DNA of 64,000 nucleotides from an uncultured Candidatus Saccharibacteria bacterium (GCA_964450735.1 CAYVDC010000007.1:1374-65373); one strand, 5' to 3'. Numbered from the stretch's first letter, positions 24,567-63,612 are shown. Numbers and translations are program-made. The notes: a model not told the origin generated them from the sequence alone.

Positions 24567-25949
24567 ATGAGTAAAAAAACAGCCGCTTCCAAAAAAATGT
24601 GGAAGCTCGGAGCCAAAGAATTCAATACGCAATACTTTGACTACAACAAAGATGGAGACTTGGTTGTCAAAGAAGGCAACAATACATACAACCTCCGCTA
24701 CTTAGCGGAAAAAATGGGCACATCGCTCGAAATCTTTTTCCCGTTCATCGTTGAAGAACGCGTGGAGGATTTTCTTGATCTCACCACTTCCCTCATTAAG
24801 AAACTAAAGTACCAGGGAAAGTTCTTTTACCACTACCCAATGAAGGTAAACCAAAACAAGGAAGTTGTTATGGCCCTCATCGGCGAAGGCGCGAACATTG
24901 AGACAGCTTCATACAACGAACTCTACTTGGTCAAGAAAATGCTTGAGCAAGGTACTTTCAATACCAATATCCGCATCCTCTGCAATGGACCAAAGACTTC
25001 TGCATACATGTCACTCATCGACGAACTCCAGCACAAAGGCCTCCGTATTGTGCCAATCATCGAAGGACCGAACGAACTCTCAGCGCTTCAGCACTCACGC
25101 TACGACGTTGGTATTCGACTCGACATGCCGGTCAAAGCAGACTCGATCTGGAACAAGCCGATCGACCGCTTCGGATTCCGAGCGGATGAAATTTTGGAAA
25201 TCGGCAAATTCAAGCACCTCCGTATCCTTCACTACCACGTCGGTTCGCAGATCAACAAGGCAAATGATATTCTCGGCCCGATCAAGTACGCGCTCGATGT
25301 CTTCTTTAAATTAAAAGAAAAGAACCCATCACTCGACACGCTAGATATCGGCGGCGGCATGCCAATTCCCTACGAGCGTAAAAAAGGATACAACATCGAG
25401 AAGATCATGGAAAATATCTTCGAGCTTGCAAAGCGTGAAGCCAACAAGCGAGAAATGCCTCACCCAAACATCATCTGTGAATGGGGCCGCTACATGGTCG
25501 CTCCAGCTCAGGTCACTATCTACAAAGTTATCGATACCAAGAAAATCACCTACAAGAAAAGCGATGCCAAAAAATGGTACGTTATCGACGGCTCATTCAT
25601 GAATGACCTCCTCGATACGTGGGCAATCAAGCAGAACTGGTCAATAGTTCCCGTAAACAACGCTCGCGACGAAGATCTCACTGACGTATGGCTCGGCGGA
25701 TCAAGCTGCGACTCAGATGATATTTACAAAGGAACCGACGGAGCACTCCGACTTCCCGACTTCGATTCAAGCGAAGATGCAAAGCCCCTCATGATCGCAG
25801 TCCTCGACACCGGAGCATACCAAGACCCCCTCGCTTCACACCACTGCATGCTCTCCTCACCGCTCAAGCTCATCGCCCAAAACGGACACATCATGGTAGT
25901 CCGCAAACGCGAAACCCCTGACGACGTCGGAAAAGCGTTCGGATGGTAA
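24567..25949 (+). CDS. PLP-dependent (fold-III) decarboxylase, compact SpeA-like arginine decarboxylase
   Basis: YFDYNKDGDLVV resembles the SpeA N-terminus; PLP-Lys motif HYPMKVN; GEGANIETASYNEL; GGG loop LDIGGGMP. Good GGAGG RBS. Specificity for arginine is inferred from neighbouring agmatinase. Confidence 0.65.
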   Translation: MSKKTAASKKMWKLGAKEFNTQYFDYNKDGDLVVKEGNNTYNLRYLAEKMGTSLEIFFPFIVEERVEDFLDLTTSLIKKLKYQGKFFYHYPMKVNQNKEVVMALIGEGANIETASYNELYLVKKMLEQGTFNTNIRILCNGPKTSAYMSLIDELQHKGLRIVPIIEGPNELSALQHSRYDVGIRLDMPVKADSIWNKPIDRFGFRADEILEIGKFKHLRILHYHVGSQINKANDILGPIKYALDVFFKLKEKNPSLDTLDIGGGMPIPYERKKGYNIEKIMENIFELAKREANKREMPHPNIICEWGRYMVAPAQVTIYKVIDTKKITYKKSDAKKWYVIDGSFMNDLLDTWAIKQNWSIVPVNNARDEDLTDVWLGGSSCDSDDIYKGTDGALRLPDFDSSEDAKPLMIAVLDTGAYQDPLASHHCMLSSPLKLIAQNGHIMVVRKRETPDDVGKAFGW

Positions 25950-25965
25950 AGCTATGAATGCCGAA

Positions 25966-26026
25966 GCATATCACTTTCTGAAATTGCCCTGCCCGCTAAG
26001 AGAAACAATTTTAGAAAGTGATATGC
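25966..26026 (+). promoter_or_regulatory. 21-bp near-perfect hairpin between decarboxylase and deoxyhypusine-synthase-like genes (candidate attenuator/processing/binding site)
   Basis: GCATATCACTTTCTGAAATTG against CAATTTTAGAAAGTGATATGC (20/21 complementary) with a 19-nt loop; no downstream U-run. Confidence 0.4.
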
Positions 26027-26082
26027 GTAGGCATCGAAAATAACTGTATCTCGAATTATTTATTAGATAATATTTAGATGTT

Positions 26083-27105
26083 ATGCAAAACAACTTACCA
26101 ACACTTGAATTCATCCTCAAGCATTACCAAAACTTCAACGCTCGTGCGACAAAGGACGCAACTATCGCATACTGGCGCCACATGGAACAAGGCGGCAAGA
26201 TGTTCTGGGCAATTGCAGGTGCGATGTCATCAGCACAGCTCGGTATCGTTCTCGCTCCAGCAATCCGCGCAGGATTGATCCACGGTATTTCTTCAACTGG
26301 CGCAAACCTCGAAGAATCACTCTTCCGACTCGTTGCTCACAATCACTACAAGGACTTCCCAGACTACCGATACTTTACCAAAGAAGACGACACAAAAATC
26401 CTCGAAGACCGCATGCGCCGCGTCACTGACACATCGATCCCAGAAGACGAAGCATTCCGCGTCGTCGAAAAGCAGATCGTACCAACATGGATCAAAGCAA
26501 CCGAGGACGGAACACGAAAATTCTGGCATGAATATTTCTATGATCTCATCCAGTCAGTAGACAAGAAAGATCACCAAGGAAAGACTGAGGAATGCTGGCT
26601 CCTCGCAGCAGCTGAAGCAAAGCTCCCTATCGTTGTTCCAGGATACGAAGACTCAACATTCGGAAACATCTTTGCTGCTCACGTAAAAGCAGGTGAAGCT
26701 TCTGCATCAATCGCAAAATCAGGAATCGAATACATGGGAGAGTTTTATGACAACTACCAGGAACTCTCAAAAGGCGCTGGCGTAGGATTCTTCCAGATCG
26801 GCGGAGGAATCGCTGGTGACTTCCCAATCTGCGTCGTTCCATCACTCAAATACGATATGGAAGTCAAAGACGTAAAGCCGTGGGCTTACTTCTGCCAGAT
26901 CTCAGACTCAACCACTTCATACGGTTCATACTCAGGTGCAACTCCAAACGAAAAGATCACGTGGGACAAGCTCACTCAGGATACACCGATGTTCGTTGTT
27001 GAATCAGATGCAACCATCGTTGTTCCACTTATGCTCAACGCATTGATGGAAGCGAAAGCAAATCCAGAAGCAGCAAACAAACTCATCGCGCAGTACACAA
27101 AATAA
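26083..27105 (+). CDS. deoxyhypusine synthase-like protein (probable homospermidine synthase)
   Basis: DHS-family blocks AIAGAMSSA, GISSTGANLEE, VVPGYEDSTFGN, IGGGIAGDF. Confidence 0.75.
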   Translation: MQNNLPTLEFILKHYQNFNARATKDATIAYWRHMEQGGKMFWAIAGAMSSAQLGIVLAPAIRAGLIHGISSTGANLEESLFRLVAHNHYKDFPDYRYFTKEDDTKILEDRMRRVTDTSIPEDEAFRVVEKQIVPTWIKATEDGTRKFWHEYFYDLIQSVDKKDHQGKTEECWLLAAAEAKLPIVVPGYEDSTFGNIFAAHVKAGEASASIAKSGIEYMGEFYDNYQELSKGAGVGFFQIGGGIAGDFPICVVPSLKYDMEVKDVKPWAYFCQISDSTTSYGSYSGATPNEKITWDKLTQDTPMFVVESDATIVVPLMLNALMEAKANPEAANKLIAQYTK

Positions 27106-27119
27106 TTTTGGAAAGAAAA

Positions 27120-27150
27120 AATGGCAACGGAATACAATTCCGTTGCCATT
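27120..27150. terminator. bidirectional Rho-independent terminator
   Basis: AATGGCAACGGAA-tacaa-TTCCGTTGCCATT flanked by A/T runs. Confidence 0.55.
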
Positions 27151-27168
27151 TTGAATTTAGGGCGCTCT

Positions 27169-27792
27169 CTAATTTTTAGTTAAACTATATGCTGCTTTTA
27201 CATCAAACAGCGAACTTACAAATTTTTTCTGCATGCTGTCGTACGCCGGCCGTAAGAGTTCACATTTTGCTTCAAAAGCCGCATGCGCGTTTTCGATACG
27301 CGTATCGCATTCGCTTGATAGCATGTGCATTTGAGCGTTGTATTTTGCAAACCCTACCGAAGTAGTAGTATTTTCAAAATCCGTAATCCGCTCAAAATTG
27401 TTTGTAGTAAAAACGTCCTTATAACTGCGGTAACCAGCAGAGTCGGTTGCCTGAAATTGATCCATAGCAGAAGCTTCACCTTTAGCGCGAACAGCATTGA
27501 AGCTGTCCTTAAGGGCTTTTTGCTCTTCTAAATACGTTTCAATTTCAGCACGGTATTTGCTGTCATTAGCTTCCAATACTGCTTGCAATAAATTCCACTT
27601 CTCTTCAAGCGTAGCCTTGCTACTCATCAAAGAATCCGTGTTTAATTCATACAAAATAGTACCGGTAACAGGAGCCATAATCTGGTTTTGTGCTTCCACG
27701 ATTGTGGGTTGCACTTCTTTGGTATTACAAGCCATTAAAAATAATACTGCAAAGAAAAATACTGCGGGGTTTGTGAACGTTTTCATTGTCAA
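27169..27792 (-). CDS. hypothetical lipoprotein
   Basis: Signal peptide ending in a lipobox-like LMAC (FFFAVLFLMACNT). Confidence 0.5.
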   Translation of the reverse strand: MTMKTFTNPAVFFFAVLFLMACNTKEVQPTIVEAQNQIMAPVTGTILYELNTDSLMSSKATLEEKWNLLQAVLEANDSKYRAEIETYLEEQKALKDSFNAVRAKGEASAMDQFQATDSAGYRSYKDVFTTNNFERITDFENTTTSVGFAKYNAQMHMLSSECDTRIENAHAAFEAKCELLRPAYDSMQKKFVSSLFDVKAAYSLTKN

Positions 27793-27908
27793 TTGTGTTT
27801 TGTTAGAAAAAACAAAATACTTAGGGTCGCTCAGTACTTAGTTTTTCCAACAAAAATATTTCAAAGAGATTGGGTGTATTATAGCATATATATGCCTATT
27901 AGTCAATA

Positions 27909-27938
27909 TAAAACCCCCTTATTTTATAAGGGGGTTTT
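27909..27938. terminator. bidirectional terminator
   Basis: AAAACCCCCTTA-tttta-TAAGGGGGTTTT. Confidence 0.55.
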
Positions 27939-27957
27939 ATATTGCATGGAGTTACTT

Positions 27958-28230
27958 TTATTCTTTTAACTTCGTACCACATTTGTGGCAGAAATCAGGA
28001 TTCATGTTTTTGCCAAGATAGGTGTGACAAACTGGACAGCGCCAATTCCAAGCCGAGAAAATCAGGCCCGCGATAACAATACATACTGCGATCGCAGTTA
28101 GCGTATCAGTGCTGATAGTCGTATTTCTCAACAAAACCATGCCAACCAACGCGATACCCACTGGTACAGCAACAAAGAGCTGTATCTTTTTTGCCTTCTT
28201 TATCTTTTCAATAACTTCATGATGTTCCAT
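27958..28230 (-). CDS. small membrane protein with C-terminal zinc-ribbon
   Basis: Two TM helices; C-terminal CPVCH...CHKCG. Confidence 0.4.
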   Translation of the reverse strand: MEHHEVIEKIKKAKKIQLFVAVPVGIALVGMVLLRNTTISTDTLTAIAVCIVIAGLIFSAWNWRCPVCHTYLGKNMNPDFCHKCGTKLKE

Positions 28231-28243
28231 ATATGGTACTCAA

Positions 28244-29143
28244 TTATCGCTTCTTCTTCCCTCCCAACAATTTTGTCTTGTAAAACGTATTGATCATATT
28301 GTAGACGATCTGCGCTGCGCCGTATTCGGTAAGTACATTGTCCGGAACTGGAGAAACTTCCACGACGTCTGCACCAACCAACTGTCGGCCTTCGATGACT
28401 GCTTCAAGCAATCGGAGCGTGTAGTACCATTCAAGTCCTCCCTGCACCGGTGTTCCCGTACCTGGCATATACGCAGGATCGATTCCATCCACGTCGATAG
28501 AAATGTAGACTTTCTTTGTTTTGACTGCGGCAATGACACGAGCGATCGATGGAATTTTTTCAGCACCCCATTCGAACACAGAAATATTTTTGTTAGCCAT
28601 GAAGTAGTCGTATTCGTCTTTTGAGAATGCGCGGATACCCACCTGTACGAGACTGTATCCCATTTCATGCGCGCGTCGCATGACTGCTGAGTGTGCGTAC
28701 GGAGTTGGATCAGTGTCATTGTAATCGCTGTCATCTTTACGGAGATCACAGTGCGCGTCGATCTGGAAAATAGTAACGTCTTTGGGATTATGCTTCTCTG
28801 AAAGCGCTTTGAGGGCTCCAAATGACATTGAGTGCTCTCCACCGAGGAGAAATGTAAAAGGAGCTGTGCTTGCCTTGCAGGCAGCAACAACGGCGTTGTG
28901 GGCGTCTTCCGGGGACATCTTTTGGAGACCAGCGATATCCTGAAGTGCGACTTTGATTTTTTCTGGTGATTCGACTCGGTATCGGCGATCGAAGAACTCG
29001 ATCTGAGTATTCAAACAGTCAATGACCTTTTGAGGACCTTCGGCAGTTCCCTTGTGGAACGAAGCGGTCTTGTCGTATGGAGCTGAGATAATAAGTACGT
29101 CCGGGTTGTCTTTGGGGCGTGAATTGATGATTGATTGTGGCAT
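28244..29143 (-). CDS. speB: agmatinase (arginase/ureohydrolase family)
   Basis: Ureohydrolase metal-binding blocks GGEHSMS, IDAHCDL, SIDVDGIDP. Its position next to an Arg-decarboxylase-like gene supports agmatinase over arginase. Confidence 0.75.
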   Translation of the reverse strand: MPQSIINSRPKDNPDVLIISAPYDKTASFHKGTAEGPQKVIDCLNTQIEFFDRRYRVESPEKIKVALQDIAGLQKMSPEDAHNAVVAACKASTAPFTFLLGGEHSMSFGALKALSEKHNPKDVTIFQIDAHCDLRKDDSDYNDTDPTPYAHSAVMRRAHEMGYSLVQVGIRAFSKDEYDYFMANKNISVFEWGAEKIPSIARVIAAVKTKKVYISIDVDGIDPAYMPGTGTPVQGGLEWYYTLRLLEAVIEGRQLVGADVVEVSPVPDNVLTEYGAAQIVYNMINTFYKTKLLGGKKKR

Positions 29144-36340: not shown

Positions 36341-38713
36341 TTACACAGATTCTTGTAGTGGTGTTTCAGGCTCTTCTGCTGGAGCAGCAGGAGTAGGGGT
36401 TTCTTCTGGAACTGGAGTGTCGATAACTGGATTTTCTAATGGTGGAACTACTTCTTGTGTTCCTTCTGTTGTAGGCTCGACAGGTTGCAGTTCTGGCTCA
36501 GGAACTGGATCAGGTTCAGGGGCAGGACTAGGAGCAGGGACAATAACTGCTGTTCCGCACTCACCCGCAGTTTTTACAAAATCACCGTTAGCCAGTGTTA
36601 CGCAGTATGGAAGATGAGAAACAGTATCGTACATTGTAAATCCAGACGGTGTTTCTGGTGTTCCAAAGACAATGCTTTTTACATGAAGTACCATATCTGC
36701 GAATCGGCTTGCGAGCGAACTTGTGTCGCCTATTCCCTGAATAGAAGAAATTTTTATATCAAGTTCCTGAACAGCCTTGGTTAATACTGGAATGATTCCA
36801 GTATAGTTAAGCGAAAGATATTTGCCTTCTGTTACCAAATCTGGGAGAACAGTGCGGACTTCCTGGGCTATGAAGCCGATCTGTGGAGATCCGTCGCTAA
36901 TCATTCGGTATGTTACAGGACGCAGTGAATTGATGGTTTGCAAACCGTATGAGCTCGATGAAATATTTTGTTTCAATCGTTGGTCAGAAGAAATATTCAA
37001 GCTTTGTGTAATAACTCCGGTTGCGAAGATTTTTCCATCAACCTGGAGAAGTGCAGACCCATCGTCGATCTGATTGTTAGTATTTTCAAAATTATTGATA
37101 CCGATTCCAACTTTTCCATTTTTCAAAATTGTAAGAGCATCACTGTCTGAGCCTGTCCCCACACCATTACCAACAACGAAGAGTCGGTCCCTTGCATCAA
37201 AATCCAACGGGTCAAATGGTGTATAGTTTGTAGTGCTCAATCCTACTGACACTTCCGCGAACGATTTTGAAGATAATCTATAACCAATTGCGGTTGAGAC
37301 CTTGCCGCTCGCGGTTGCCTGCTGACCCATTGCAGTAGCATACTGGCCACTTGCAACAGTACCACTACCAAACGCAGTTGAAGTCGAACCTGAAGCAAGC
37401 GTACTCTGTCCGAACGCAGTTGCATTTTCATTGCTTGCGACAGAACCTGTGCCAAACGCGGTTGAAGCGTCAGCGCTTGCCGTACTTGATATTCCAAAAG
37501 CAGTTGCACCTGTACTGGACGCTGTTGTGGCAAAACCAAACGCAGTAGAAGCTATCCCAATGGAATCAGTATCTACTCCAAAGGCCACTGAACCATCATC
37601 ACCGGCATAGGTATTTGTTCCAAACGCTACAGTAAAGCGACCAACTGCATCTGTATTGTAACCGAAGGCCACGGCATAATCCCCAGAAGCGTTATTGCCG
37701 GAACCGAACACTGTCGTAAAATCACCGCTAGAAATAGTTCCGCTTCCGAGCGCTACACTGTGAAGGCCTGAAGCAATTGGTGCATCCAAACCTCGATCAT
37801 TGTCAGCAAAACCGATAGCAACGGAACGGTTGCCAATGTTGCCACCTTGCCATAAGCTGCCATTGACTGAACCAAGGCGTATCGCTTTTTGATCATAATT
37901 GAAGAAGAATTTTTGTTCCTCATTGAATTGGGTTACTGGAGTCATCTGCCACTTTTCTCCATCAATATAATTTGAAGAAACAAATGTAACATATACTCCA
38001 TCCTGCAATAGATCTGGAACTCCCGCATTGATTGGATTTCCTGTTGAAACAGTTACACCATTCAAAGTAAAAGTATAATCCGTTCCGCTTGGTTCAATTA
38101 TTACTGCATATACATCTGTGATACTGGAACCTGTATATGGTCCTTCAAAACCGACATCAGGGAATGAGCCAAAGTTTATAGGATTAGTTGTTGGTCCGAC
38201 GATTATCGTTGTTCCAGTATTATTATTAAAACTATCTGAATTAAATATAAATCCATTGCTTTTTACAGCCAGGCGATTTTGCCCGAGCATAATTTCGTTA
38301 GCTTCACTGGTTACTGCTCCATTCCCAATTGCGAACGAATTTGCCTGGCTTGCTGTACTAGCAGTTCCAAGTGCAATATTACCGATTTGCCCGAATTTCG
38401 CCATTTGAGAATTGTTCGTCTTAATGACAAAATCGGCTGCATCCGTCGTCCCAACAAAATTCGTTGTTCCTCCGTCAGTGCCTGCGTTTCCGGTAAGCCC
38501 CCAACCAACACCGTCACCAGTATTTTGAAAACAATTAGAAGAACCAGGAGCGCAACCTGGGTCGAGAATAGAATCTCCGAACAAATACCCGCCAGATGGA
38601 GGAACCGTGCCTGGAGAAAGCTGCGCAGAAAAAACTACAGCCCCATAACCCAAAACTGACAATACAGCTACGGAAAGAGAGACGAATTTTTTATACGGAA
38701 AAGCACGGAACAT
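36341..38713 (-). CDS. secreted fibre-like surface protein, paralog 1: signal peptide, conserved Cys-containing N-module, Gly/Ala/Ser/Thr-rich repeats (Hep_Hag/beta-helix-like), peptidase S74 intramolecular chaperone autoproteolysis domain, Pro/Glu-rich C-terminal tail
   Basis: N-terminus VLGYGAVVFSAQLSPGTVPPSGGYLFGDSILDPGCAPGSSNCFQNTGDGVGWGLTGNAGTDGGTTNFVGTTDA. The repeat region has recurring ..ATAFG..STASG.. units. The S74 block is SDQRLKQNISSSSYGLQTINSLRPVTYRM...IGFIAQEV...PVLTKAVQEL. The tail is PAPSPAPEPDPVPEPELQPVEP... Confidence 0.75.
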   Translation of the reverse strand: MFRAFPYKKFVSLSVAVLSVLGYGAVVFSAQLSPGTVPPSGGYLFGDSILDPGCAPGSSNCFQNTGDGVGWGLTGNAGTDGGTTNFVGTTDAADFVIKTNNSQMAKFGQIGNIALGTASTASQANSFAIGNGAVTSEANEIMLGQNRLAVKSNGFIFNSDSFNNNTGTTIIVGPTTNPINFGSFPDVGFEGPYTGSSITDVYAVIIEPSGTDYTFTLNGVTVSTGNPINAGVPDLLQDGVYVTFVSSNYIDGEKWQMTPVTQFNEEQKFFFNYDQKAIRLGSVNGSLWQGGNIGNRSVAIGFADNDRGLDAPIASGLHSVALGSGTISSGDFTTVFGSGNNASGDYAVAFGYNTDAVGRFTVAFGTNTYAGDDGSVAFGVDTDSIGIASTAFGFATTASSTGATAFGISSTASADASTAFGTGSVASNENATAFGQSTLASGSTSTAFGSGTVASGQYATAMGQQATASGKVSTAIGYRLSSKSFAEVSVGLSTTNYTPFDPLDFDARDRLFVVGNGVGTGSDSDALTILKNGKVGIGINNFENTNNQIDDGSALLQVDGKIFATGVITQSLNISSDQRLKQNISSSSYGLQTINSLRPVTYRMISDGSPQIGFIAQEVRTVLPDLVTEGKYLSLNYTGIIPVLTKAVQELDIKISSIQGIGDTSSLASRFADMVLHVKSIVFGTPETPSGFTMYDTVSHLPYCVTLANGDFVKTAGECGTAVIVPAPSPAPEPDPVPEPELQPVEPTTEGTQEVVPPLENPVIDTPVPEETPTPAAPAEEPETPLQESV

Positions 38714-38807
38714 GTGCCTAAATTATATCATATTGGCTTGATAATACTAATAAAAAAGCCAGCCCCATTACTGGAAACTGGCTCTATAAAATTTAAAATC
38801 AAAGTTG

Positions 38808-40493
38808 TTACTGCACTACTACTTTTGCGGTAGTATCACCCGCTTTTAGGAAATAAATTCCTTTCGGCAAGTCTAATTGCAGTTGCTGTTTTGGAGAAGT
38901 AAGCTGATACGAAATCTGCTTGCTACCAATTACGTCATAAACATCTACCTTACCCAGGTTACGATAATCCTCGCTGGTTACAAAAAATGTACCATTATTA
39001 GGATTTGGGAATACTGTAAATGCGGTTTTAGAAACCGAAGCAACACCGGTCGGCGTGGCTATGGCAGGATATGTTTCAACCCGTAATTTGCTTGCATCCG
39101 CTCCGAACATCTCTGCTCGTATACCAGCGGGGAATTTGTAAATAAGGTTGTTGTACCTCATTTTCATATCAACCGTAGTGCCAGCAGGGATCGTTCCCTG
39201 TTGTACATACTGCACAGCTTTACTTTCAACCTGCAATGAGTTATCCGATGCATCAGGATTAAATATTTCTATTACTGAATTTTGGACAACCGTATCGAAT
39301 GGCGCTGCGCCAAGCGTGAACGGATTGTTTGCAGTACTGCTTACATAATACATCGGCAACCGCATGTCGGGGCCAATCTGCACATCTCTGTTTTGAGCAG
39401 GAATGTGTGTAGTAGCGAAATATTTCTCTTTCCAAAAAACGGAGCTCGCTAGATCAATCTGATTTCCATTTACGATAGCGAAATTAAATTTCGTAAAAAT
39501 CGTCATCAAGGCTGAATCTGACGCTCCAGGAAACATGTTTCTGAACACATCGAGCAACGCATCGATACCTACAGTATCACCAGCATGCCTGCCGTCATTA
39601 AAGGCTTGTGCCGCTTGAGCGGTACCAGTGTCGATAATAAACGTTGGAAACACATAACTAAACGTTATGGATTGTCCTGGAAGGAGTTTTAATTTTCCGT
39701 CCATATCCATAGTAGGAAACTGCTCCATTGGTGCGTAGGTTACTGGGTTGCGAGTGAAGAAATCTGCATACATCTCATTGCTAACTTCTGTTAGTTCGTA
39801 ACAGGAACGCGTTGGTGTTGTATAGCAATATCTTTTGGATGAATCCAGCCAAGAACGATGTTGAATGATATCTTCGGCAGACATGTAATTGTCGATCGTA
39901 CCGGGAACCTTATCCAAGGACCGCGGCTCGCCATCATCAGTATCAACCAAAATAGTATCGTTATTGTGGAACAATTCACCAAGGGTATGACCCTCGGTAG
40001 TCACAATACGCAGTGAGTCAGCTGAAATCATTCCTGTTTCCACCGCTACATGGTTGAAGAAGTTTTCACGTTCTCCGCACATGTGCGAGGCATTAGCCAG
40101 AAAAAATCCGCATGGGGTAAACTGCTTGCGTGCAACAAACCGGTCGAATCCATTGGGGCCGTACGAAGTGTACTCGGGATTCCGCAGGTGTACGATGTAC
40201 GGGCTTTTAACAAGCCTGGTCATCTCTCTGGTAAATCCGAAGGGGTCGCCTGTTGAAGCCATGTGATCATAATATGTTTGCTTGGTAGCAAAAATTATAT
40301 TATCACTGTCTTCAAACTGGGTTAGTAGGTAGAACTCCATGGGTACTGAATCGGTGTTTTGAATCGTCACACTAAAGCTGTCATTCGGGTTTGGAACATT
40401 CGCCGGAAAGCCTTTGAATAGTTCAACAACTTGTGCGTGTGAGGTAAAGGTAAAAAGCATTGCGGCAAAAGCCAGTAGATAGAATTTTTTCAT
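38808..40493 (-). CDS. secreted protein with C-terminal T9SS-type (Por) sorting domain
   Basis: Signal peptide MKKFYLLAFAAMLFTFTSHAQ. Last ~70 aa FPNPNNGTFFVTSEDYRNLGKVDVYDVIGSKQISYQLTSPKQQLQLDLPKGIYFLKAGDTTAKVVVQ match the Por_Secre_tail pattern (NP..., YD..G, LP.G(I/V)YF.K, K.V..). Confidence 0.6.
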   Translation of the reverse strand: MKKFYLLAFAAMLFTFTSHAQVVELFKGFPANVPNPNDSFSVTIQNTDSVPMEFYLLTQFEDSDNIIFATKQTYYDHMASTGDPFGFTREMTRLVKSPYIVHLRNPEYTSYGPNGFDRFVARKQFTPCGFFLANASHMCGERENFFNHVAVETGMISADSLRIVTTEGHTLGELFHNNDTILVDTDDGEPRSLDKVPGTIDNYMSAEDIIQHRSWLDSSKRYCYTTPTRSCYELTEVSNEMYADFFTRNPVTYAPMEQFPTMDMDGKLKLLPGQSITFSYVFPTFIIDTGTAQAAQAFNDGRHAGDTVGIDALLDVFRNMFPGASDSALMTIFTKFNFAIVNGNQIDLASSVFWKEKYFATTHIPAQNRDVQIGPDMRLPMYYVSSTANNPFTLGAAPFDTVVQNSVIEIFNPDASDNSLQVESKAVQYVQQGTIPAGTTVDMKMRYNNLIYKFPAGIRAEMFGADASKLRVETYPAIATPTGVASVSKTAFTVFPNPNNGTFFVTSEDYRNLGKVDVYDVIGSKQISYQLTSPKQQLQLDLPKGIYFLKAGDTTAKVVVQ

Positions 40494-40580
40494 TGTGTAA
40501 AGTGGTTATTGGTTATGTAAAATAATTTTTAGACTGACTTATACTATGCCACAAAATGGTAAATTTTACAAGACCTACCA

Positions 40581-40606
40581 AAAACCCCTCTAATAGAGGG
40601 GTTTTT
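40581..40606. terminator. terminator downstream of fibre paralog 2
   Basis: AAAACCCCTCTA-ata-GAGGGGTTTTT. Confidence 0.55.
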
Positions 40607-40613
40607 GGAATGA

Positions 40614-43229
40614 TTATGATGCAGGAGCGATTTCTGGAGTAGGTTCTGGGGCAGGTTCAGAAGCTGGTTCTGGAGCAGGTTCTGGGGTTGGTTCTACGGT
40701 AGGTTCTGGAGTTGGTTCTAGTGTCGGTGGGGTTTCTACCAGCGGCTCTTCTGTCACCGTTTCCGGCTGAGGTTCTGTCGGGGTTTCCGAAACAACTGGT
40801 TCTTCTTGCGGAACTGGTTGCTGTGTCTGGCCGCCAGAATTATAGTTGTTTTGCTGAGGCAATAGCTGCTTGAGCTGCTGAAGTTGCGCACGTGTTATAC
40901 ATTCATCCGCATATCCTTCTTCTGACAAACAAATTTCATGAGTAAATATTCGCGCGATGCCATTGCTTGCATTTCCCAACCATCCGCTGATCGATGACAA
41001 AAATGTGCTGCTTGGGGTTGTAAGAGTATCCATTGAAGCTACTTTCAAATTGAGCTCTTGGACTGATTTAATGAGCAACGGGATAAATGTCTTGTAATCA
41101 ACCATCATATATCCATCTGTTCGATGACCTACAGCCTCTGGATAGAGTGGCTCAACTTGCTGCGCCAAGACTCCGGTATGCTGCTTATTATTGTCATTGA
41201 TGATAGATTGATCGTACATAAAATCAACCACTCTGATATTTTTCAAAACATCCAAACCGTATGAGGTATCAATGATATTTTGTTTTGTGCGCTGGTCGGA
41301 AGGAGCGGTCGTATCAATTGTGTTTGTTCCAATATAGAGAGTAGATGAGCCTGAACCGCTAGTAACGTCGCTAATCTTGTTGCTATCGCTATCAACACCA
41401 ATACGGAGACCAGTACGGAAAAAGTTCTGTGCTTCAGCATCGTCAATAAAGAGAGCATACTCCATACCTGAAGTCCCCTGGAGTGACGCATTGCTGAAAT
41501 AAATACCATAGACATCCGCAGCAGTCAGTGAAGGAACATCCGTTACACCATCAAAGGTGCTGCTGAAATTTATACCTTTGATTAAGTTTATTGCTTCAAT
41601 ACCTGGCTGATAGACACTTCCTTGCATTCCAGAAGAAAAGTTGATTCCATTCGTACTAAAAATAGAACCGGTGTTTCGAATGAACGAAGTAAGATGCATA
41701 ACGTCCGCATTATTAACAATACCTCCACTCTGTACAGTCACTCGAGCATCAATTCCAAAAGCATTATTGATGGTTGCGCCCGAAACGTTACTTGAAACCA
41801 CACTGTTGATTCCATATGCAGTATTTACGACTCCGGTTGCACTTAAGTTGGTTACACTGCCGTTAATTCCTTTCATGGCGTTAACAGTTCCTGTTCCCAA
41901 ATTTCCCGCCAGATTGTTTAAGCCATACAAATTATCAATATTGCCGGAACCTTGATGAAGTGCAGTACTATTGATACCGTTCATATTACTGATTGTTCCA
42001 GATGAAGTAGGGCTTGAAGCAACAGAAGCAGTAATACCCGCTATTCCACCAGTACCTGAGGCAGTAGAAACGTTAAAAGCGCCACCGTCCCAAACTGTTG
42101 AACCTGAGAGCGTAGAATATGCGGTATTGGTTGTATTTCCGGTAGCAGTCAAGGTGCCTTCAAATGTATTAAAGGTTCGGTTTGTAGAAGATGCAACTTC
42201 TGTAGATGCAATACCTCTGAAGCGGCCATTTAATTTCAAACGAATTGAAGTTGCATCAGAATCTCCTTCCCAGTTATTGATGCCGAATGCCGAGTTTCCA
42301 TTTTTTAGAATAGTAAACGCATCATTTTTGTCTGGCCATACACCCAATAGTGAATTATTGCCCGAGTCATTATCTCCATTACCGATACTAAACACCCGGT
42401 CTGTCGGTGACAAAAATTGCCCCAAACCAAGTGGAGTCGGTGTGTAATCTGTTCCATATGCACCAATAGATGTTTCATATGCAGAACGAGCGAAACTGCT
42501 CTGTCCAAAAGCAGTTGAAGCATAACCCGAGGCAATAGTGTCATAACCAAAAGCTGTCGAAGCAGAGTTGCTTGCTAATGTACCCTGACCAAAAGCAGTT
42601 GAGTCTGAGCCTGAAGCGGTATTGCTTGTTCCAAACGCGGTTGCGTTTTCTTCAATAGCACTTGTTCGGTCTCCAAATGCAGTAGCATATGGGCCAGTCG
42701 CCTTTGTACCAACGCCCCATGCAGTCGAAAGCTGTCCAGAAGCAAAAGGATAATCATAGTTACCTGTGCTTCCGCCCCACGCCATCGCTCCTTGTCCAGA
42801 CGCTGTTACTGCAATATTGCCATTAGTATCTGGTCCAACAAGAACACCATCAGTGTAATTTCCAAATGCGATATTTCCATTTTGGCCAAACCGGCCTATT
42901 TCTGCTCCATTGGTTTTTACAACAAAATCTACAGCATCAGTTGTTCCGATGAAATTTGTTGTTCCTCCGTCAGTTCCTGCATCACCGGTAAGAGCCCACC
43001 CCACACCATCCCCAGTATTTTGATAACAGTTGGCACTGCCCGGAGCACATCCTGGATTGAGAATACTGTCACCTGCTGCATATCCGCCACTTGGTGGCGT
43101 TGTGCCATCAGCTAGTTGCGCACCAAACACAACCACTCCATATCCGACAATGGAAAGCAGTGTGATAAAAAAAGAAAGAATCTTTCGGTGGGAAAAAAAC
43201 AATGATTTCATGTACAAAAAGTATACCAC
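40614..43229 (-). CDS. secreted fibre-like surface protein, paralog 2 (same architecture as paralog 1; 871 aa)
   Basis: Conserved N-module LSIVGYGVVVFGAQLADGTTPPSGGYAAGDSILNPGCAPGSANCYQNTGDGVGWALTGDAGTDGGTTNFIGTTDA. Gly/Thr/Asn-rich repeats. S74 block SDQRTKQNIIDTSYGLDVLKNIRVVDFMY...TGVLAQQVE...IPLLIKSVQELNLK. Pro-rich tail PEPTVEPTPEPAPEPASEPAPEPTPE. Confidence 0.75.
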   Translation of the reverse strand: MVYFLYMKSLFFSHRKILSFFITLLSIVGYGVVVFGAQLADGTTPPSGGYAAGDSILNPGCAPGSANCYQNTGDGVGWALTGDAGTDGGTTNFIGTTDAVDFVVKTNGAEIGRFGQNGNIAFGNYTDGVLVGPDTNGNIAVTASGQGAMAWGGSTGNYDYPFASGQLSTAWGVGTKATGPYATAFGDRTSAIEENATAFGTSNTASGSDSTAFGQGTLASNSASTAFGYDTIASGYASTAFGQSSFARSAYETSIGAYGTDYTPTPLGLGQFLSPTDRVFSIGNGDNDSGNNSLLGVWPDKNDAFTILKNGNSAFGINNWEGDSDATSIRLKLNGRFRGIASTEVASSTNRTFNTFEGTLTATGNTTNTAYSTLSGSTVWDGGAFNVSTASGTGGIAGITASVASSPTSSGTISNMNGINSTALHQGSGNIDNLYGLNNLAGNLGTGTVNAMKGINGSVTNLSATGVVNTAYGINSVVSSNVSGATINNAFGIDARVTVQSGGIVNNADVMHLTSFIRNTGSIFSTNGINFSSGMQGSVYQPGIEAINLIKGINFSSTFDGVTDVPSLTAADVYGIYFSNASLQGTSGMEYALFIDDAEAQNFFRTGLRIGVDSDSNKISDVTSGSGSSTLYIGTNTIDTTAPSDQRTKQNIIDTSYGLDVLKNIRVVDFMYDQSIINDNNKQHTGVLAQQVEPLYPEAVGHRTDGYMMVDYKTFIPLLIKSVQELNLKVASMDTLTTPSSTFLSSISGWLGNASNGIARIFTHEICLSEEGYADECITRAQLQQLKQLLPQQNNYNSGGQTQQPVPQEEPVVSETPTEPQPETVTEEPLVETPPTLEPTPEPTVEPTPEPAPEPASEPAPEPTPEIAPAS

Positions 43230-45063: not shown

Positions 45064-45966
45064 TTATAAATCAAAAAAATCAGTATCGATTTTATATATT
45101 TTTAACTCTTGTTCTTGGGTTACCCCTAAACCAACACTAAGCATTAACTCGGCCAGCTTTTCCCCATTAATAAGCACAATCTGAACATGGGAAATTGCAG
45201 CAACAGAAACAGCATCATTATTGAAATCAGAGGTAGTAATAAAAACGCCTTTCTTTGCATTTTTACCTAAAATATCTCCGATAAATTGCGACACTTCCCT
45301 TCGGCCAACCTTATTACCCCATCTTTTGGCTTGTACATATATTTTTTCAAACCCGAGATGGTCCCCCTTAATAATACCATCTATACCACCATCACTTGTA
45401 TAGCGGGTAACTTCGCCGACGCCGTACCCCATTTTAACCAATAAATCTACGACTAATTTTTCAAATAATTGAGGATGCATGGATGCCACTTTTTCCAAAA
45501 TCTCTTCCTTTACAAGATCATTGATTTTGTTTACATTGGCAATTATATTTTCTTGAGGAGTAATATTTGAATCTTCCGAAACATCTTCGCCTTCGCTCCT
45601 ATTTTTTTCATCCTTATTTCCCCAGGTCTTCACATCCCAAAAATCAGGAAATTTCTTTAGATCTTTGACACTTAAACTTGTTAGGTTTTGTTTTAGTAGA
45701 TCTAGCCCCCTTTCTGTAATAATATATTTCCTTTTCTCCTGTGTTTTATCTATCAGCTTCGCTTTAAAAATAAAAGTTCTTGCCCATGCCAGTCTGTCGA
45801 GAAAAATTTTTCTTCCTGGAGTGTTTGGATATTGGGCGTTTTTATCTTCATCAGTCAAATGAACCTTTTGGGCAATAACATCTTCAAAAACCTGCCAATC
45901 ATGCGGCTGGCCATCCTTAAAGCATTCTAATAATGGGAGCATCAGCTCATTAAATTTGGGAATCAT
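45064..45966 (-). CDS. mrr: Mrr-family restriction endonuclease (Mrr_N winged-helix + Mrr_cat PD-(D/E)xK nuclease)
   Basis: The C-terminal block EKLVVDLLVKMGYG...YTSDGGIDGIIKGDHLGFEKIYVQAKRW is the Mrr_cat signature (D...IDG...E.K, VQAKR). The N-terminal winged-helix-like region (MIPKFNELMLPLLECFKDGQPH...) resembles Mrr_N. The gene sits 4 nt from the pheT start and 14 nt from the pheS stop. Confidence 0.8.
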   Translation of the reverse strand: MIPKFNELMLPLLECFKDGQPHDWQVFEDVIAQKVHLTDEDKNAQYPNTPGRKIFLDRLAWARTFIFKAKLIDKTQEKRKYIITERGLDLLKQNLTSLSVKDLKKFPDFWDVKTWGNKDEKNRSEGEDVSEDSNITPQENIIANVNKINDLVKEEILEKVASMHPQLFEKLVVDLLVKMGYGVGEVTRYTSDGGIDGIIKGDHLGFEKIYVQAKRWGNKVGRREVSQFIGDILGKNAKKGVFITTSDFNNDAVSVAAISHVQIVLINGEKLAELMLSVGLGVTQEQELKIYKIDTDFFDL

Positions 45967-58236: not shown

Positions 58237-59961
58237 TTATGGGAGAGAGTCCCAAAACAATTTAAAATTTCTGGAACTAGCCAGTTTGCCACGATCGCGA
58301 GCAAATATAAATCTCAAGCTTGTGCTGGTACCGTAGTTCACGTCAAAATCCAGGCTTACGGTGTGCCAACCTGGTCCTACCGTACAAAGTCCGGAAAGTG
58401 CAGTATTAGGAAAAAGACTTTCTTCCACTCTATACTCTGTACCATTAAAAGCCACAGAAGTATCTCCATACAATTCACCCTGGATCCTAACGTGGAATTT
58501 ACCTGCAGGGATTGATTGGCTTATTGCACTCGCAAATGAATGCGGTGCATTAGTTGTGTCTCGGTCAATTTGAGCGAGACTTAATTTTACTCCATGAATA
58601 GGAGTAAAACCTGTTGGACCAGTGGGGCCAGTTGGGCCTCCACCTGAACCAGTTGCACCAGGTATACCTTGAGGTCCAGTTGCACCTGTGTTTCCGGCAA
58701 TTCCTTGCGGGCCAGTATCTCCAGTCGGACCATTTTGGCCATTGGTACCATTCGTACCTGAGGGACCTTGTGGGCCGGTTGGACCGGTTGGACCAGTAGC
58801 ACCAAAACCTGTAGGTCCGGTGTTTCCTTGTAAACCAGTTGCTCCCGTTGCACCAACTAAACCCTGAATGCCTTGCAATCCTGTTGCACCGGTAGGACCA
58901 GTGTTTCCAGAAACGCCTTGTGCACCAGTTGCTCCTTGTAAACCTGTTGCTCCAGTGTTGCCGATTAAACCTTGTGGTCCAGTATTTCCGGTTGCGCCTT
59001 GAGTGCCGCTAATTCCGGGAATGCCTTGAGGTCCAGTTACACCTTGTGCTCCCTGCAAACCAGTAGCTCCTGTAGCTCCAATCAAGCCTTGTGGGCCAGT
59101 GGGGCCAGTTGCGCCGCCACCTGCACCAGTCGGTCCTTGTAAGCCTGTAGGGCCAGTTGCTCCAGTAATACCAATTCCAGTTACGCCAGGTAATCCTGTC
59201 GAACCTGTAATTCCAGGAATACCCTGAGCACCGGTTGGACCGGTTACTCCTTGCAAACCCGTTACTCCACTTGCACCAGTAGGCCCTTGAAGCCCTAAAG
59301 CTCCTTGGGGTCCCGTTGGGCCAGTTATGCCAGTAGTACCTTGCAAACCTTGTGGTCCAGTATTTCCGGTTGCGCCTGTAATTCCCTGCGGGCCAGTAGT
59401 TCCATTAAGACCAGTTGAACCAGTTGCGCCGCGAGCACCAACAGTGCCGTTTAATCCTTGGACGCCAGCAGGTCCGGTTACACCGGGTATACCTTGCGGG
59501 CCAATTTGGCCTGCTGGGCCAGTTGCGCCAGTCGGGCCAGGATTATCAGCATACAAAGCACGAGCTGCATAAAGTGAGTATGGTACGCTCTCTAACTTGG
59601 TCGAACCCATATTGATATATGCAGTACCGCCGTTAGGATCAAGCTCAACTAGTAAATACACATCTGCTCCACCCCATGGAATGGTTGGAAAATCATATCG
59701 TGTATCAGTTGGCATGCCGCTGCCGATAACATGCGTAAACAGTCCGAATCGGTTGGTAGTCGCTGTATCAGTCTCCTGATACAATGGAAAACCATTGTTA
59801 ACGCGGTGCGTGAGGGTAAGTCGAAAATTTACAAGACGGCCAGCAAGCGCATTTCCGGAAGCGTCCCGGGCAATGGCTTGGTAATTGATGCCTTGCGGTG
59901 CCTGTGCATCCGCCACTAAAGTCATCAACGCAATAAGCGTGAGTAGTATGGTTGTTTTCAT
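58237..59961 (-). CDS. collagen-like triple-helix repeat protein with signal peptide and N- and C-terminal globular domains
   Basis: Signal peptide [21 protein letters not shown]. About 100 uninterrupted Gly-X-Y triplets ([25 protein letters not shown]...) rich in Thr/Gln/Pro. The ~125-aa C-terminal non-collagenous domain may be C1q/TNF-like. Confidence 0.8.
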
Positions 59962-62604: not shown

Positions 62605-62693
62605 GGCGGAGAGAGGGAGATTCGAACTCCCGATACCATTTCTGATATACAACCTTTCCAGGGTTGCCGTTTCAACCGCTCACGCATCTCTCC
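62605..62693 (-). tRNA. tRNA-Ser (anticodon GGA), type II
   Basis: Revcomp GGAGAGATGCGTGAGCGGTTGAAACGGCAACCCTGGAAAGGTTGTATATCAGAAATGGTATCGGGAGTTCGAATCTCCCTCTCTCCGCC: perfect 7-bp acceptor stem, anticodon stem CAACC/GGTTG, loop CTGGAAA, long variable arm, T arm GGGAG-TTCGAAT-CTCCC. Confidence 0.8.
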
Positions 62694-62721: not shown

Positions 62722-63612
62722 TTATTTTCCAAGAAGCGCCTTGATGCGATCTTCGACTCGTGGATGCGTAGCGAACAATGAACTAACATGTTTTGCGAAT
62801 TTACCTGAACCTTCTGGGTTAGCAAGATACAAGTGCGCGATCGCTGAAGACTGTCGCTGCATAGGCTTGCCGTATTCGCCGATTTTTTTGAGAGCGCTTG
62901 CCAATCCTTCTGGATAACGAGTAAGCAGAGCACCGGAAGCGTCAGCCAAATATTCACGCTTTCGAGAAATCGCAAGTTGAATGAGCATTGCAAAAATTGG
63001 TGCGAGAATTGCAAGAACAATCCCTACAACCATGAGCAATCCCCCACCTTCACGATTGTCACGATCACGGAAACCAAAAAGCTGCGAGCGCAAAAAAATA
63101 TCAGCAACGATAGAAACAAAACCTGCAAGCACAACAGCAACAGTCGAAACAAGCATGTCTCGATTGCCCACGTGAGAAAGTTCATGAGCCAAAACACCCT
63201 CGAGTTCTTTTCGTTCCATAATCTGTAGTAGTCCAGTAGTCACTGCAACCGCTGCATGTTTTGGATCTCTTCCGGTTGCAAATGCGTTTGGGGATGGGTC
63301 GGTGATGACGTAAATCTTTGGGACTGGAAGTCCGGCGGTAATAGAAAGATTTTCGATGATATTATGTAAGTCAGGAAACTGTGCTTTGAGAGCAAGTTTG
63401 GCACCGGAAAGTGAAATCACAACTTTGTCTGAAAACCAGTACGCCGTAATATTCATCACGATAGAAAATACAGCGAACCCGATTAGAATGCTTGGATTGC
63501 CGTAATAGTAGCTAAAGAACCAGCCAAGGCCGATAACTATGACTAAAAAGGTGGTCATGAGGAGCCACGTTTTGGTGATATTTGAAGATTGATGGGTATA
63601 TAAAGTAGCCAT
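62722..63612 (-). CDS. htpX: zinc metalloprotease HtpX (peptidase M48)
   Basis: HEXXH (LAHELSHVGNRD), four TM helices, N-terminal region MATLYTHQSSNITKTWLL typical of HtpX. Confidence 0.85.
   Translation of the reverse strand: MATLYTHQSSNITKTWLLMTTFLVIVIGLGWFFSYYYGNPSILIGFAVFSIVMNITAYWFSDKVVISLSGAKLALKAQFPDLHNIIENLSITAGLPVPKIYVITDPSPNAFATGRDPKHAAVAVTTGLLQIMERKELEGVLAHELSHVGNRDMLVSTVAVVLAGFVSIVADIFLRSQLFGFRDRDNREGGGLLMVVGIVLAILAPIFAMLIQLAISRKREYLADASGALLTRYPEGLASALKKIGEYGKPMQRQSSAIAHLYLANPEGSGKFAKHVSSLFATHPRVEDRIKALLGK

Follow-up and report, generated by a model that had tools for sequence, protein, structure and literature searches.

What are three large genes with fiber-like products doing among the housekeeping genes of an uncultured Candidatus Saccharibacteria bacterium? 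The question is raised by a 64,000-nucleotide stretch of its DNA (GCA_964450735.1 CAYVDC010000007.1:1374-65373, the window hereafter), in which a first-pass annotation made from the sequence alone described a paralogous family of secreted fibers. To our knowledge, the means by which Patescibacteria, or candidate phyla radiation (CPR) bacteria, recognize and hold their hosts are largely unknown beyond type IV pili. We consider it fairly probable that the three open reading frames (ORF1, ORF2 and ORF3) belong to a Patescibacteria-wide family of Sec-exported, S74-folded, self-cleaving and most likely homotrimeric surface fibers. The family is distinguished by a short N-terminal Cys-loop peptide and by a conserved Cys-pair module and acidic tail carried on the chaperone. 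All three large ORFs that had been reported are present, on the minus strand (positions throughout are those of the window; aa, amino acids):

36341-38713, minus strand: ORF1, fiber protein of 790 aa
40614-43229, minus strand: ORF2, fiber protein of 871 aa (from GTG 43229) or, more likely, 865 aa (from ATG 43211)
60110-62494, minus strand: ORF3, fiber protein of 794 aa

The three proteins share a common layout. A putative Sec-type signal peptide is followed by a 31-aa Cys-loop peptide, a divergent beta-solenoid core, a Peptidase_S74 domain and a Cys-pair module, and the chain ends in an acidic Pro/Glu tail. A three-way alignment read region by region gives 43-65% identity between copies in the signal-peptide region, 20-24% in the core, 27-41% in S74 and 8-32% in the module that follows S74, and the proposal that the genes are paralogs is supported. 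Only four Cys residues occur in ORF1, and likewise in ORF2, with one pair in the N-terminal loop and the other in the module after S74; an arrangement of four Cys as two local pairs is typical of extracytoplasmic proteins. Monomer models made by AlphaFold2 with homolog alignments have a mean predicted local distance difference test score (pLDDT) of 71.7 for ORF1 and 73.9 for ORF3. For ORF2, the ATG at 43211 is favored over the GTG at 43229 because the database gene model (P0041, 865 aa) begins there and a TG-extended -10 box is present 8 nt before it.

The S74 intramolecular chaperone block that had been proposed near each C-terminus is genuine. In Pfam, all three proteins score above the gathering cut-off of 22 bits for Peptidase_S74 (PF13884), with 54.5 bits for ORF1 (E = 1.4e-14), 44.4 bits for ORF2 (E = 2.1e-11) and 60.0 bits for ORF3 (E = 2.7e-16). 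The SDxRxK motif, which holds the Ser-Lys dyad, is intact in each of them:

36734-36988, minus strand: ORF1 S74 domain (PF13884), residues 576-660, with SDQRLK, putative nucleophile Ser576 and partner Lys581; pLDDT 83-93
41031-41300, minus strand: ORF2 S74 domain (PF13884), residues 644-733, with Ser644 in SDQRTK
60446-60715, minus strand: ORF3 S74 domain (PF13884), residues 594-683, with Ser594 in SDERLK; pLDDT 80-92

The S74 Ser, Asp and Lys, together with the GF(I/L)AQ motif, show almost no variation, if any, across 60-65 homologs. The domain has sequence matches to the PDB chains 3gud and 6f45, and Ser594 of ORF3 aligns with residue 1 of the 3gud chain, which begins at the equivalent Ser. 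The best fold match for the S74 part of both the ORF1 and ORF3 monomer models is the intramolecular chaperone auto-processing (ICA) domain of MyRF, 7dc3 (Foldseek E-values of 6.5e-4 to 1e-3, template modeling (TM) scores of 0.58-0.63), which is also the top overall match of the ORF3 model (6.5e-4, TM 0.63). Further S74 fold matches are 3gud and, more weakly for ORF1, the endosialidase chaperone 3GW6 and T5 pb1. By analogy with these proteins, trimerization-dependent autocleavage would be expected at Ser576, Ser644 and Ser594 of the SDxRxK motif.

The first-pass annotation further held that the S74 block is not terminal and did not recognize its arrangement from described tailspike proteins. 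Each statement stands only in part. The Pfam S74 model spans 58 positions and represents the first part of a 120-155-aa domain, while solved chaperone chains comprise about 130-255 residues (the 3GW6 chains, at about 255 aa, take in part of the upstream stalk). Because the Pfam model is shorter than the solved chaperone chains, the long helix that follows the Pfam block belongs to the S74 domain itself, and the non-terminal position is partly an artifact; the Cys-pair module and the tail are truly extra. As for the arrangement, MyRF also has a non-terminal S74 domain, and the mosaic adhesive trimer (MAT) fibers of Bdellovibrio combine an N-domain, a fiber and S74, but the extra sequence after S74 sets the present proteins apart.

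The N-termini of ORF1-3 resemble signal peptides in their n-, h- and c-regions, as likewise claimed at first pass. A single strongly hydrophobic segment is present per protein; it is N-terminal, comes after Lys/Arg in a KK n-region and leads into VF(S/G/A)A-QL, and that of ORF1 is the sole hydrophobic segment of the protein, with a Kyte-Doolittle value of 2.17. This same segment could instead be an uncleaved signal-anchor, in which case no docking partner would be needed and the Cys-loop would form a membrane-proximal stalk. In keeping with an anchor, the segment of about 20 aa is modeled by AlphaFold2 as a helix (residues 6-29 in ORF1, 3-21 in ORF3), and its LSIxGYGxxVFAA sequence is unusually conserved for a signal peptide. 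However, the segment is directly followed by a conserved V-F-A/S/G sequence (positions -3 to -1), which forms a canonical small-residue site, and conservation of the hydrophobic core fades in distant homologs, like that of ordinary signal peptides. An anchor is regarded as unlikely, and a cleaved signal peptide as more probable. The N-terminal features are as follows:

38624-38713, minus strand: ORF1 putative signal peptide, residues 1-30; KK in the n-region, about 20 hydrophobic aa, site between VFSA and QL
38531-38623, minus strand: ORF1 N-terminal Cys-loop peptide, residues 31-61, QLSPGTVPPSGGYLFGDSILDPGCAPGSSNC; the family-specific N-module
43026-43118, minus strand: ORF2 N-terminal Cys-loop peptide, residues 38-68 (871-aa numbering)
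62321-62416, minus strand: ORF3 N-terminal Cys-loop peptide, residues 27-58
38339-38530, minus strand: ORF1 residues 62-125, a GWxLTGNAGT...NFIGTTD...FVIKTN...FGQxGN unit; a widespread repeat unit

The shared N-terminal module (N-module) had been described as near-identical in the three copies. The module is real, but its similarity was overstated, as what the copies have in common is a 31-aa peptide, QLxxGTxPPxGGYxxGxSILxPGCAPxSxxC, with 68-77% identity. The unit of about 55 aa that comes next is 64% identical between ORF1 and ORF2, and 23-27% identical between these and ORF3. The Cys-loop peptide is kept across Patescibacterial homologs; NCBIfam offers no match to the ORF1 peptide at thresholds up to E<=10, and no Pfam family is reported for this region in a search with the full-length protein. 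In a library of 1.84 billion proteins, an N-module profile scores family members at E-values of about 1e-50 and retrieves 5729 cluster representatives at E<=1e-3, most of which match positions 65-122 alone. This unit recurs up to 22 times within other very large proteins. Because most profile matches cover only positions 65-122, often repeatedly per protein, the Cys-loop half is the mark of the family and the other half is generic. The whole module of about 125 aa was accordingly rejected as a family-specific feature, since positions 65-122 are a common repeat unit.

Between the N-module and S74, the cores had been expected to be YadA-like or beta-helical, and this is upheld by PF05658 repeats in ORF1 and ORF2 and by a beta-helix in ORF3:

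37931-38239, minus strand: ORF1 non-repetitive insert, residues 159-261; pLDDT <50, no Pfam match
37094-37921, minus strand: ORF1 YadA-head-like beta-roll, residues 265-540; PF05658 at 3e-29, pLDDT >90
42435-42752, minus strand: ORF2 YadA-head-like repeats, residues about 160-265; PF05658 at 1.4e-7, BpaC 7o23 at 1.5e-12
61205-62242, minus strand: ORF3 beta-solenoid of repeats of about 17 residues (xSNFxGxxAGxxAxxAx), residues about 85-430
60890-61177, minus strand: ORF3 inserted beta-rich domain, residues about 440-535; pLDDT 80-96, weak beta-barrel matches only

Foldseek matches the ORF1 model to the heads of trimeric autotransporters, namely BpaC 7o23 (6e-8), CbpF, UspA1 and BoaA, and the ORF1 beta-roll also has sequence matches among PDB chains. 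The AlphaFold2 model of ORF3 places a strand at each 17 residues from 89 to 426; its core contains neither YadA_head (PF05658) nor any other Pfam family. The YadA_head repeats of ORF1 and ORF2, with autotransporter heads as their best PDB matches, would agree with trimeric autotransporter adhesins (type Vc secretion), and the Joint Genome Institute (JGI) labels some homologs as 'trimeric autotransporter adhesin'. Nevertheless, Pfam reports no YadA_anchor (PF03895) or YadA_stalk in ORF1-3, whose C-terminus is S74, and the relatives are Patescibacteria, which are not known to have an outer membrane. Because the anchor domain is missing, ORF1-3 are not trimeric autotransporters. Its absence refutes membership of the type Vc family, and we give this reading practically no credence.

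Beta-helical cores could also belong to secreted, trimeric, tailspike-like polysaccharide depolymerases, which would degrade the capsule or cell wall of a host and not adhere to it. Neither Pfam nor NCBIfam reports a catalytic family, and sequence identity to enzymes is 5-10%, which amounts to generic beta-helix likeness. The cores of ORF1 and ORF2 consist of YadA-head repeats, known adhesin modules, and the 17-residue turn of ORF3 is shorter than that of pectate-lyase-type helices. An enzymatic role is quite improbable, and a fiber made for binding is the reading that we carry forward.

In ORF1-3 the region after the Ser is 201-228 aa long, and it includes the following features:

36554-36733, minus strand: ORF1 C-terminal extension, residues 661-720, with a Cys704/Cys719 pair; divergent from the family consensus
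40860-41030, minus strand: ORF2 C-terminal extension, with WLGNASNGI, Cys767...Cys777 and then ITRAQLQQL
60260-60445, minus strand: ORF3 C-terminal extension, with a helix WLGNQANGIV, a Cys722/Cys727 beta-hairpin and a helix; pLDDT 63-73
36344-36553, minus strand: ORF1 acidic Pro/Glu tail, residues 721-790, 70 aa; 29% Pro, 19% Glu, net charge -15, pLDDT <50
40617-40859, minus strand: ORF2 acidic Pro/Glu/Thr tail, 81 aa; partly a 12/24/36-bp tandem repeat
60113-60259, minus strand: ORF3 acidic Pro/Glu tail, 49 aa; pLDDT <50

The AlphaFold2 model of ORF3 has a helix at residues 690-701, the Cys722/Cys727 hairpin, a second helix at 730-739 and then disorder, and the ORF1 tail is modeled as disordered from residue 716. 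Low-complexity Pro/Glu/Thr tails of 50-70 aa had been described at first pass; the tails are present, but their actual lengths are 70, 81 and 49 aa. Their composition is 28-31% Pro and 16-20% Glu, with neither Lys nor Arg, and the net charge lies between -9 and -16. Of the 64 open frames in the window that reach 150 aa, ORF1-3 alone end in such a tail. The tandem repeat with periods of 12, 24 and 36 bp, at 40632-40719, encodes the PEPTPEPAPEP part of the ORF2 tail and is a possible site of length variation.

An alignment of C-termini shows that proteins with the N-module continue with a helix, then a segment of about 55-60 aa, WLxxxxNGIxxIF...C...C(I/V)Txx(Q/E)LxxLL, and then an acidic low-complexity tail, whereas Bacteroidota-type relatives have a short coiled-coil-like end in place of the module. 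When the regions after the Ser were compared between 78 sequences with the N-module and 120 without it, the median length was 209 residues with and 136 without. The Cys pair was found in 91% versus 17% of the sequences, WLxxxxNGI in 76% versus 17%, and a tail with at least 30% Pro plus Glu in 53% versus 11%. In an alignment of 60 homologs (ORF3 numbering), Cys727 does not vary at all, and conservation reaches at least 90% for Cys722 and Asn705, which is about level with the catalytic motif. Speculatively, the Cys-pair module and tail may be an adaptation of the chaperone to extracytoplasmic folding, acting through disulfide locking, solubility or spacing.

S74 domains are best known from phage fibers, and ORF1-3 might accordingly be tail fibers or tailspikes of a phage or prophage, that is, virion proteins or their remnants. 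In this direction point the PHROG tail-fiber families that match ORF1-3, the 458 phage records that also match, and the resemblance of the ORF3 model to phage receptor-binding proteins and tailspikes. However, the PHROG matches involve essentially the S74 region alone, and the phage records cover at most 20% of the query, within the S74 part only. Each protein also begins with a putative signal peptide. The genes stand singly among housekeeping neighbors (gyrB, pheST, murC/murD-like genes and a tRNA), and no phage genes occur among the ORFs listed or scanned in the 64-kb window. Furthermore, the ORF2 locus is syntenic in three relatives, and the N-module was not found in IMG/VR. With no phage genes among these ORFs and no N-module found in IMG/VR, we judge it very unlikely that these are virion proteins, and continue to read them as cellular surface fibers. 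An ancient phage origin of the S74 module itself is likely.

The family is widespread in Patescibacteria, and a contig often holds 2-3 copies. At E<=1e-5, 483 homologs were retrieved from ORF1 and 854 from ORF3. Among the named homologs, those with the N-module are Candidatus Paceibacterota/Pacebacteria entries called 'tail fiber domain-containing protein'; the homologs also include a Saccharibacteria entry and a 'Patescibacteria group' entry. Bacteroidota, Ignavibacteriota and others have YadA+S74 proteins whose N-termini differ. A genome scan with a six-sequence N-module alignment found four loci, from a Paceibacterota metagenome-assembled genome (MAG), a Saccharibacteria-labeled MAG and an unclassified MAG, and none from the genome of the window itself. 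The syntenic relatives are titled Paceibacterota and Saccharibacteria, which supports the view that the window comes from a CPR-like genome.

Three syntenic relatives (L001, L003 and L008) share with the window, in this order, pheS, pheT, an ORF2 homolog, a protein with a type IX secretion system C-terminal domain (T9SS-CTD) and gyrB; a uvrD-like gene lies additionally upstream in L003 and L008. Identity of gyrB DNA to the window is 84-87% in L001 and L003. ORF2 orthologs occupy the same position in all three, and in each of them (3/3) no ORF1 stands between gyrB and the T9SS-CTD gene. Fiber gene content therefore differs between close lineages. In the same MAG as L003, another locus (L002) encodes a protein of 788 aa whose N- and C-terminal modules are the same but enclose an unrelated core. 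Other CPR contigs carry two or three S74 fiber genes per approximately 20 kb, as in L005 (5132-12472 and 22172 onward) and L007 (5774-15864), and those of L005 break the ribosomal-protein array between rplB and rpsS.

Similarity of the N-modules had led to the suggestion of recombination or cassette switching between copies. In pairwise blastn, ORF1-3 are 76-78% identical over an N-module of about 144 bp, with nothing longer and no long identical tracts. The DNA alignment thus gives no sign of recent exchange, and gene conversion between ORF1-3 was rejected on the same figures. The sequence comparisons support module shuffling over evolutionary time instead, because of the mosaic L002 protein and the presence/absence polymorphism of ORF1.

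ORF2 orthologs are split by frameshifts in L003 (6001-8549) and L008 (6001-8524). In L008, gyrB is also in three pieces, which makes an assembly error likely; the L003 break, directly after the N-module, may be real or an error. One protein, P0044 (588 aa, no S74), was considered as a natural S74-less variant and rejected, because its contig splits ORF2 and gyrB through frameshift errors.

The genes may also be expressed independently of one another. A custom pattern scan located -10 elements, which are pattern matches only. The box of ORF1, TGATATAAT, is TG-extended and stands 8 nt before the ATG, and a terminator-like 12-pair hairpin (38755-38785) precedes that box. In ORF2 and ORF3 the TG-extended box reads TGGTATACT and TGGTATACT, respectively, located 8 nt upstream of ATG 43211 and 10 nt upstream of the ORF3 ATG. 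Shine-Dalgarno motifs are rare, being found in 4 of 39 window genes. Since the -10 boxes end 8-10 nt before the ATG and Shine-Dalgarno motifs are rare, the sequence suggests that the fiber genes have separate, leaderless or near-leaderless transcripts. TG-extended -10 boxes stand 6-11 nt before the ATG in 8 of the 39 genes, including the three fiber genes, SMC-like, uvrD-like and murD-like genes and the last gene (62722-63612), and leaderless transcripts may be widespread in the window. A sigma-70 scan, which misses -10-only elements, found promoter-like sites no more common than in shuffled sequence.

Several neighbors of the fiber genes deserve mention in their own right. Between ORF2 and ORF1 (38808-40493, minus strand) lies the gene for the T9SS-CTD protein, whose position is kept in L001, L003 and L008. 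Its product of 561 aa combines a signal peptide in the style of Bacteroidota (...TSHAQ) with a C-terminal sorting domain of T9SS type A, scoring 33.8 bits for Por_Secre_tail (cut-off 27) and 33.3 for TIGR04183 (cut-off 23). Such a protein is unexpected in a Patescibacteria-like genome, where an outer membrane and a T9SS should be absent. Its presence could be due to horizontal transfer from Bacteroidota, or the beta-sandwich domain may have been re-used. ORF3 sits between tRNA-Ser (62605-62693) and a gene for a 574-aa collagen-triple-helix protein (58237-59961, minus strand; PF01391, 3e-42). Residues 10-85 of the latter weakly match the MAT N-domain NF053851 (3.4e-8; 33.4 bits, cut-off 60), and the INYQAxxRD motif of its N-terminus recurs in YadA+S74 proteins of Bacteroidales, for example P0020. 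The collagen-like protein is probably a fourth trimeric surface fiber, of a different type. A Mrr-type restriction endonuclease gene (45064-45966, minus strand; Mrr_N + Mrr_cat) lies between pheS and pheT and is absent at that position in L003 and L008. At 24567-29143 is a polyamine-related cluster, encoding a pyridoxal phosphate (PLP)-dependent Orn/Arg decarboxylase and proteins of the deoxyhypusine-synthase and arginase/agmatinase families.

How such a fiber might be made can be outlined from these features and from S74 domains of known behavior, which trimerize and template folding in endosialidase, the T5 tail fiber, MyRF and the MAT protein Bd3182. Each gene would probably be transcribed from its own -10 element into a leaderless or near-leaderless mRNA. 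The precursor would be exported unfolded through Sec, and its signal peptide probably cleaved between VF(A/S/G)-A and QL. The S74 domain would be the last to emerge; upon trimerizing it would serve as the template on which the beta-solenoid shaft folds from C- to N-terminus. In ORF1 and ORF2 this shaft would be a YadA-head-like beta-roll, in ORF3 a beta-helix of 17-residue repeats. Self-cleavage at the Ser of SDxRxK would then free a fragment of about 200-230 aa bearing the Cys-pair module and the acidic disordered tail. The mature fiber would be held on the cell by the 31-aa Cys-loop peptide, docked on a common surface partner, and the divergent shaft and tip would supply binding specificity. 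The likeliest role, by parallel with MAT fibers and phage receptor-binding proteins, would be adhesion, either to a surface or to the cell of a partner or host, and host attachment by the family is plausible on the same analogy. A more far-reaching proposal is that these proteins are what phage receptor-binding proteins and MAT fibers are elsewhere, a phylum-wide, fast-turnover repertoire of S74 fibers that sets the host cells open to an episymbiont, that all of them share one Cys-loop docking base, and that the Cys-hairpin and tail delay trimerization until exit from Sec; this we put forward as a tentative and rather doubtful extension.

Certain observations weigh against a self-cleaving, homotrimeric surface fiber that attaches to a host. 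Trimerization is argued from analogy. The hydrophobic segment, at about 20 aa and with its unusual degree of conservation, could be an uncleaved membrane anchor. The Cys-loop peptide is modeled with low confidence (pLDDT <50 in ORF1 and ORF3), no docking partner for it was identified in the gene neighborhood, and nothing in the window provides a link to a host. Finally, the conserved C-terminal module lies on a fragment that would be discarded, for which a pure chaperone role offers no obvious explanation.

The family provides candidate attachment proteins that can be defined by sequence, being secreted, fiber-like, multi-copy, mosaic and variable between close relatives. Predicted S74 autocleavage at a known Ser gives a biochemical handle that is usable in E. 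coli without culturing the organism. The family would also carry the recently described borrowing of a phage fiber-folding module, by a cell that lives on other cells, beyond Bdellovibrio and into a second lifestyle and type of envelope, unrelated to the first. Moreover, it raises a mechanistic question, namely why sequence should be conserved on a post-chaperone fragment that would be thrown away.

In the literature library searched, no relevant paper was found on S74, tail-fiber or YadA proteins in Patescibacteria or Saccharibacteria. The phage chaperones of K1F endosialidase (3GW6), the GA-1 neck appendage (3GUD), T5 pb1 (4UW8) and a long-tail-fiber distal subunit (6F45) have the S74 motif and fold in common with ORF1-3. 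The phage proteins differ in folding in the cytoplasm and in having neither signal peptide nor N-module, and the WLxxxxNGI, Cys-hairpin module and disordered tail are additions of ORF1-3. MyRF is a eukaryotic transcription factor of the endoplasmic reticulum (ER) membrane; its S74 domain is non-terminal, with a transmembrane helix and a luminal domain beyond it. Its ICA domain (7DC3) is the best structural match to the S74 part (TM 0.58-0.63) and likewise does not stand at the very C-terminus, but ORF1-3 have no C-terminal hydrophobic segment.

Among bacterial proteins, the YadA_head+S74 'tail fiber domain-containing proteins' of Bacteroidota and Ignavibacteriota are 30-47% identical to ORF1-3 over the repeat and S74 regions. 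They differ at the N-terminus, which is either AQVGINTTxP (PF26696) or an INYQAVxRD module weakly like the MAT N-domain, as well as at the C-terminus, where 100-150 aa follow the Ser and form a coiled-coil-like end with neither Cys module nor Pro/Glu tail. The heads of YadA, BpaC, CbpF and UspA1 share left-handed beta-roll repeats with ORF1 and ORF2. Unlike these autotransporter adhesins, ORF1-3 have no membrane-anchor beta-barrel, and their trimerization would be driven by S74.

The nearest described analog is the S74 subgroup of the MAT fiber family, by which Bdellovibrio recognizes prey (Caulton et al., 2024; PMC10769870). Bdellovibrio bacteriovorus encodes 21 MAT paralogs with a signal peptide, a conserved N-domain of about 130 aa and trimeric beta-helical fibers; 13 of the 21 end in S74, and self-cleavage of Bd3182 has been demonstrated experimentally at S782 of 922 residues (PMC10769870). 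Both families are multi-copy and paralogous, are encoded by non-phage chromosomal genes, and belong to bacteria that live on other cells. In an analogous architecture, both also place a conserved module directly after the known or putative signal peptide, followed by a variable beta-helical fiber and a C-terminal S74 domain with SDxxxK. The modules themselves are non-homologous, as the N-module of ORF1-3 consists of a 31-aa Cys-loop and a common repeat unit in place of the MAT N-domain of about 130 aa. In the first 160 aa of ORF1-3 the MAT N-domain model NF053851 (Bdello_MAT_N) has no match at E<=10, and membership of the MAT family by its N-domain was rejected on this basis. The organism studied here is, in addition, probably monoderm. 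The two families also differ after the Ser, where Bd3182 has 140 aa and ORF1-3 have 201-228 aa with the Cys-pair module and acidic tail.

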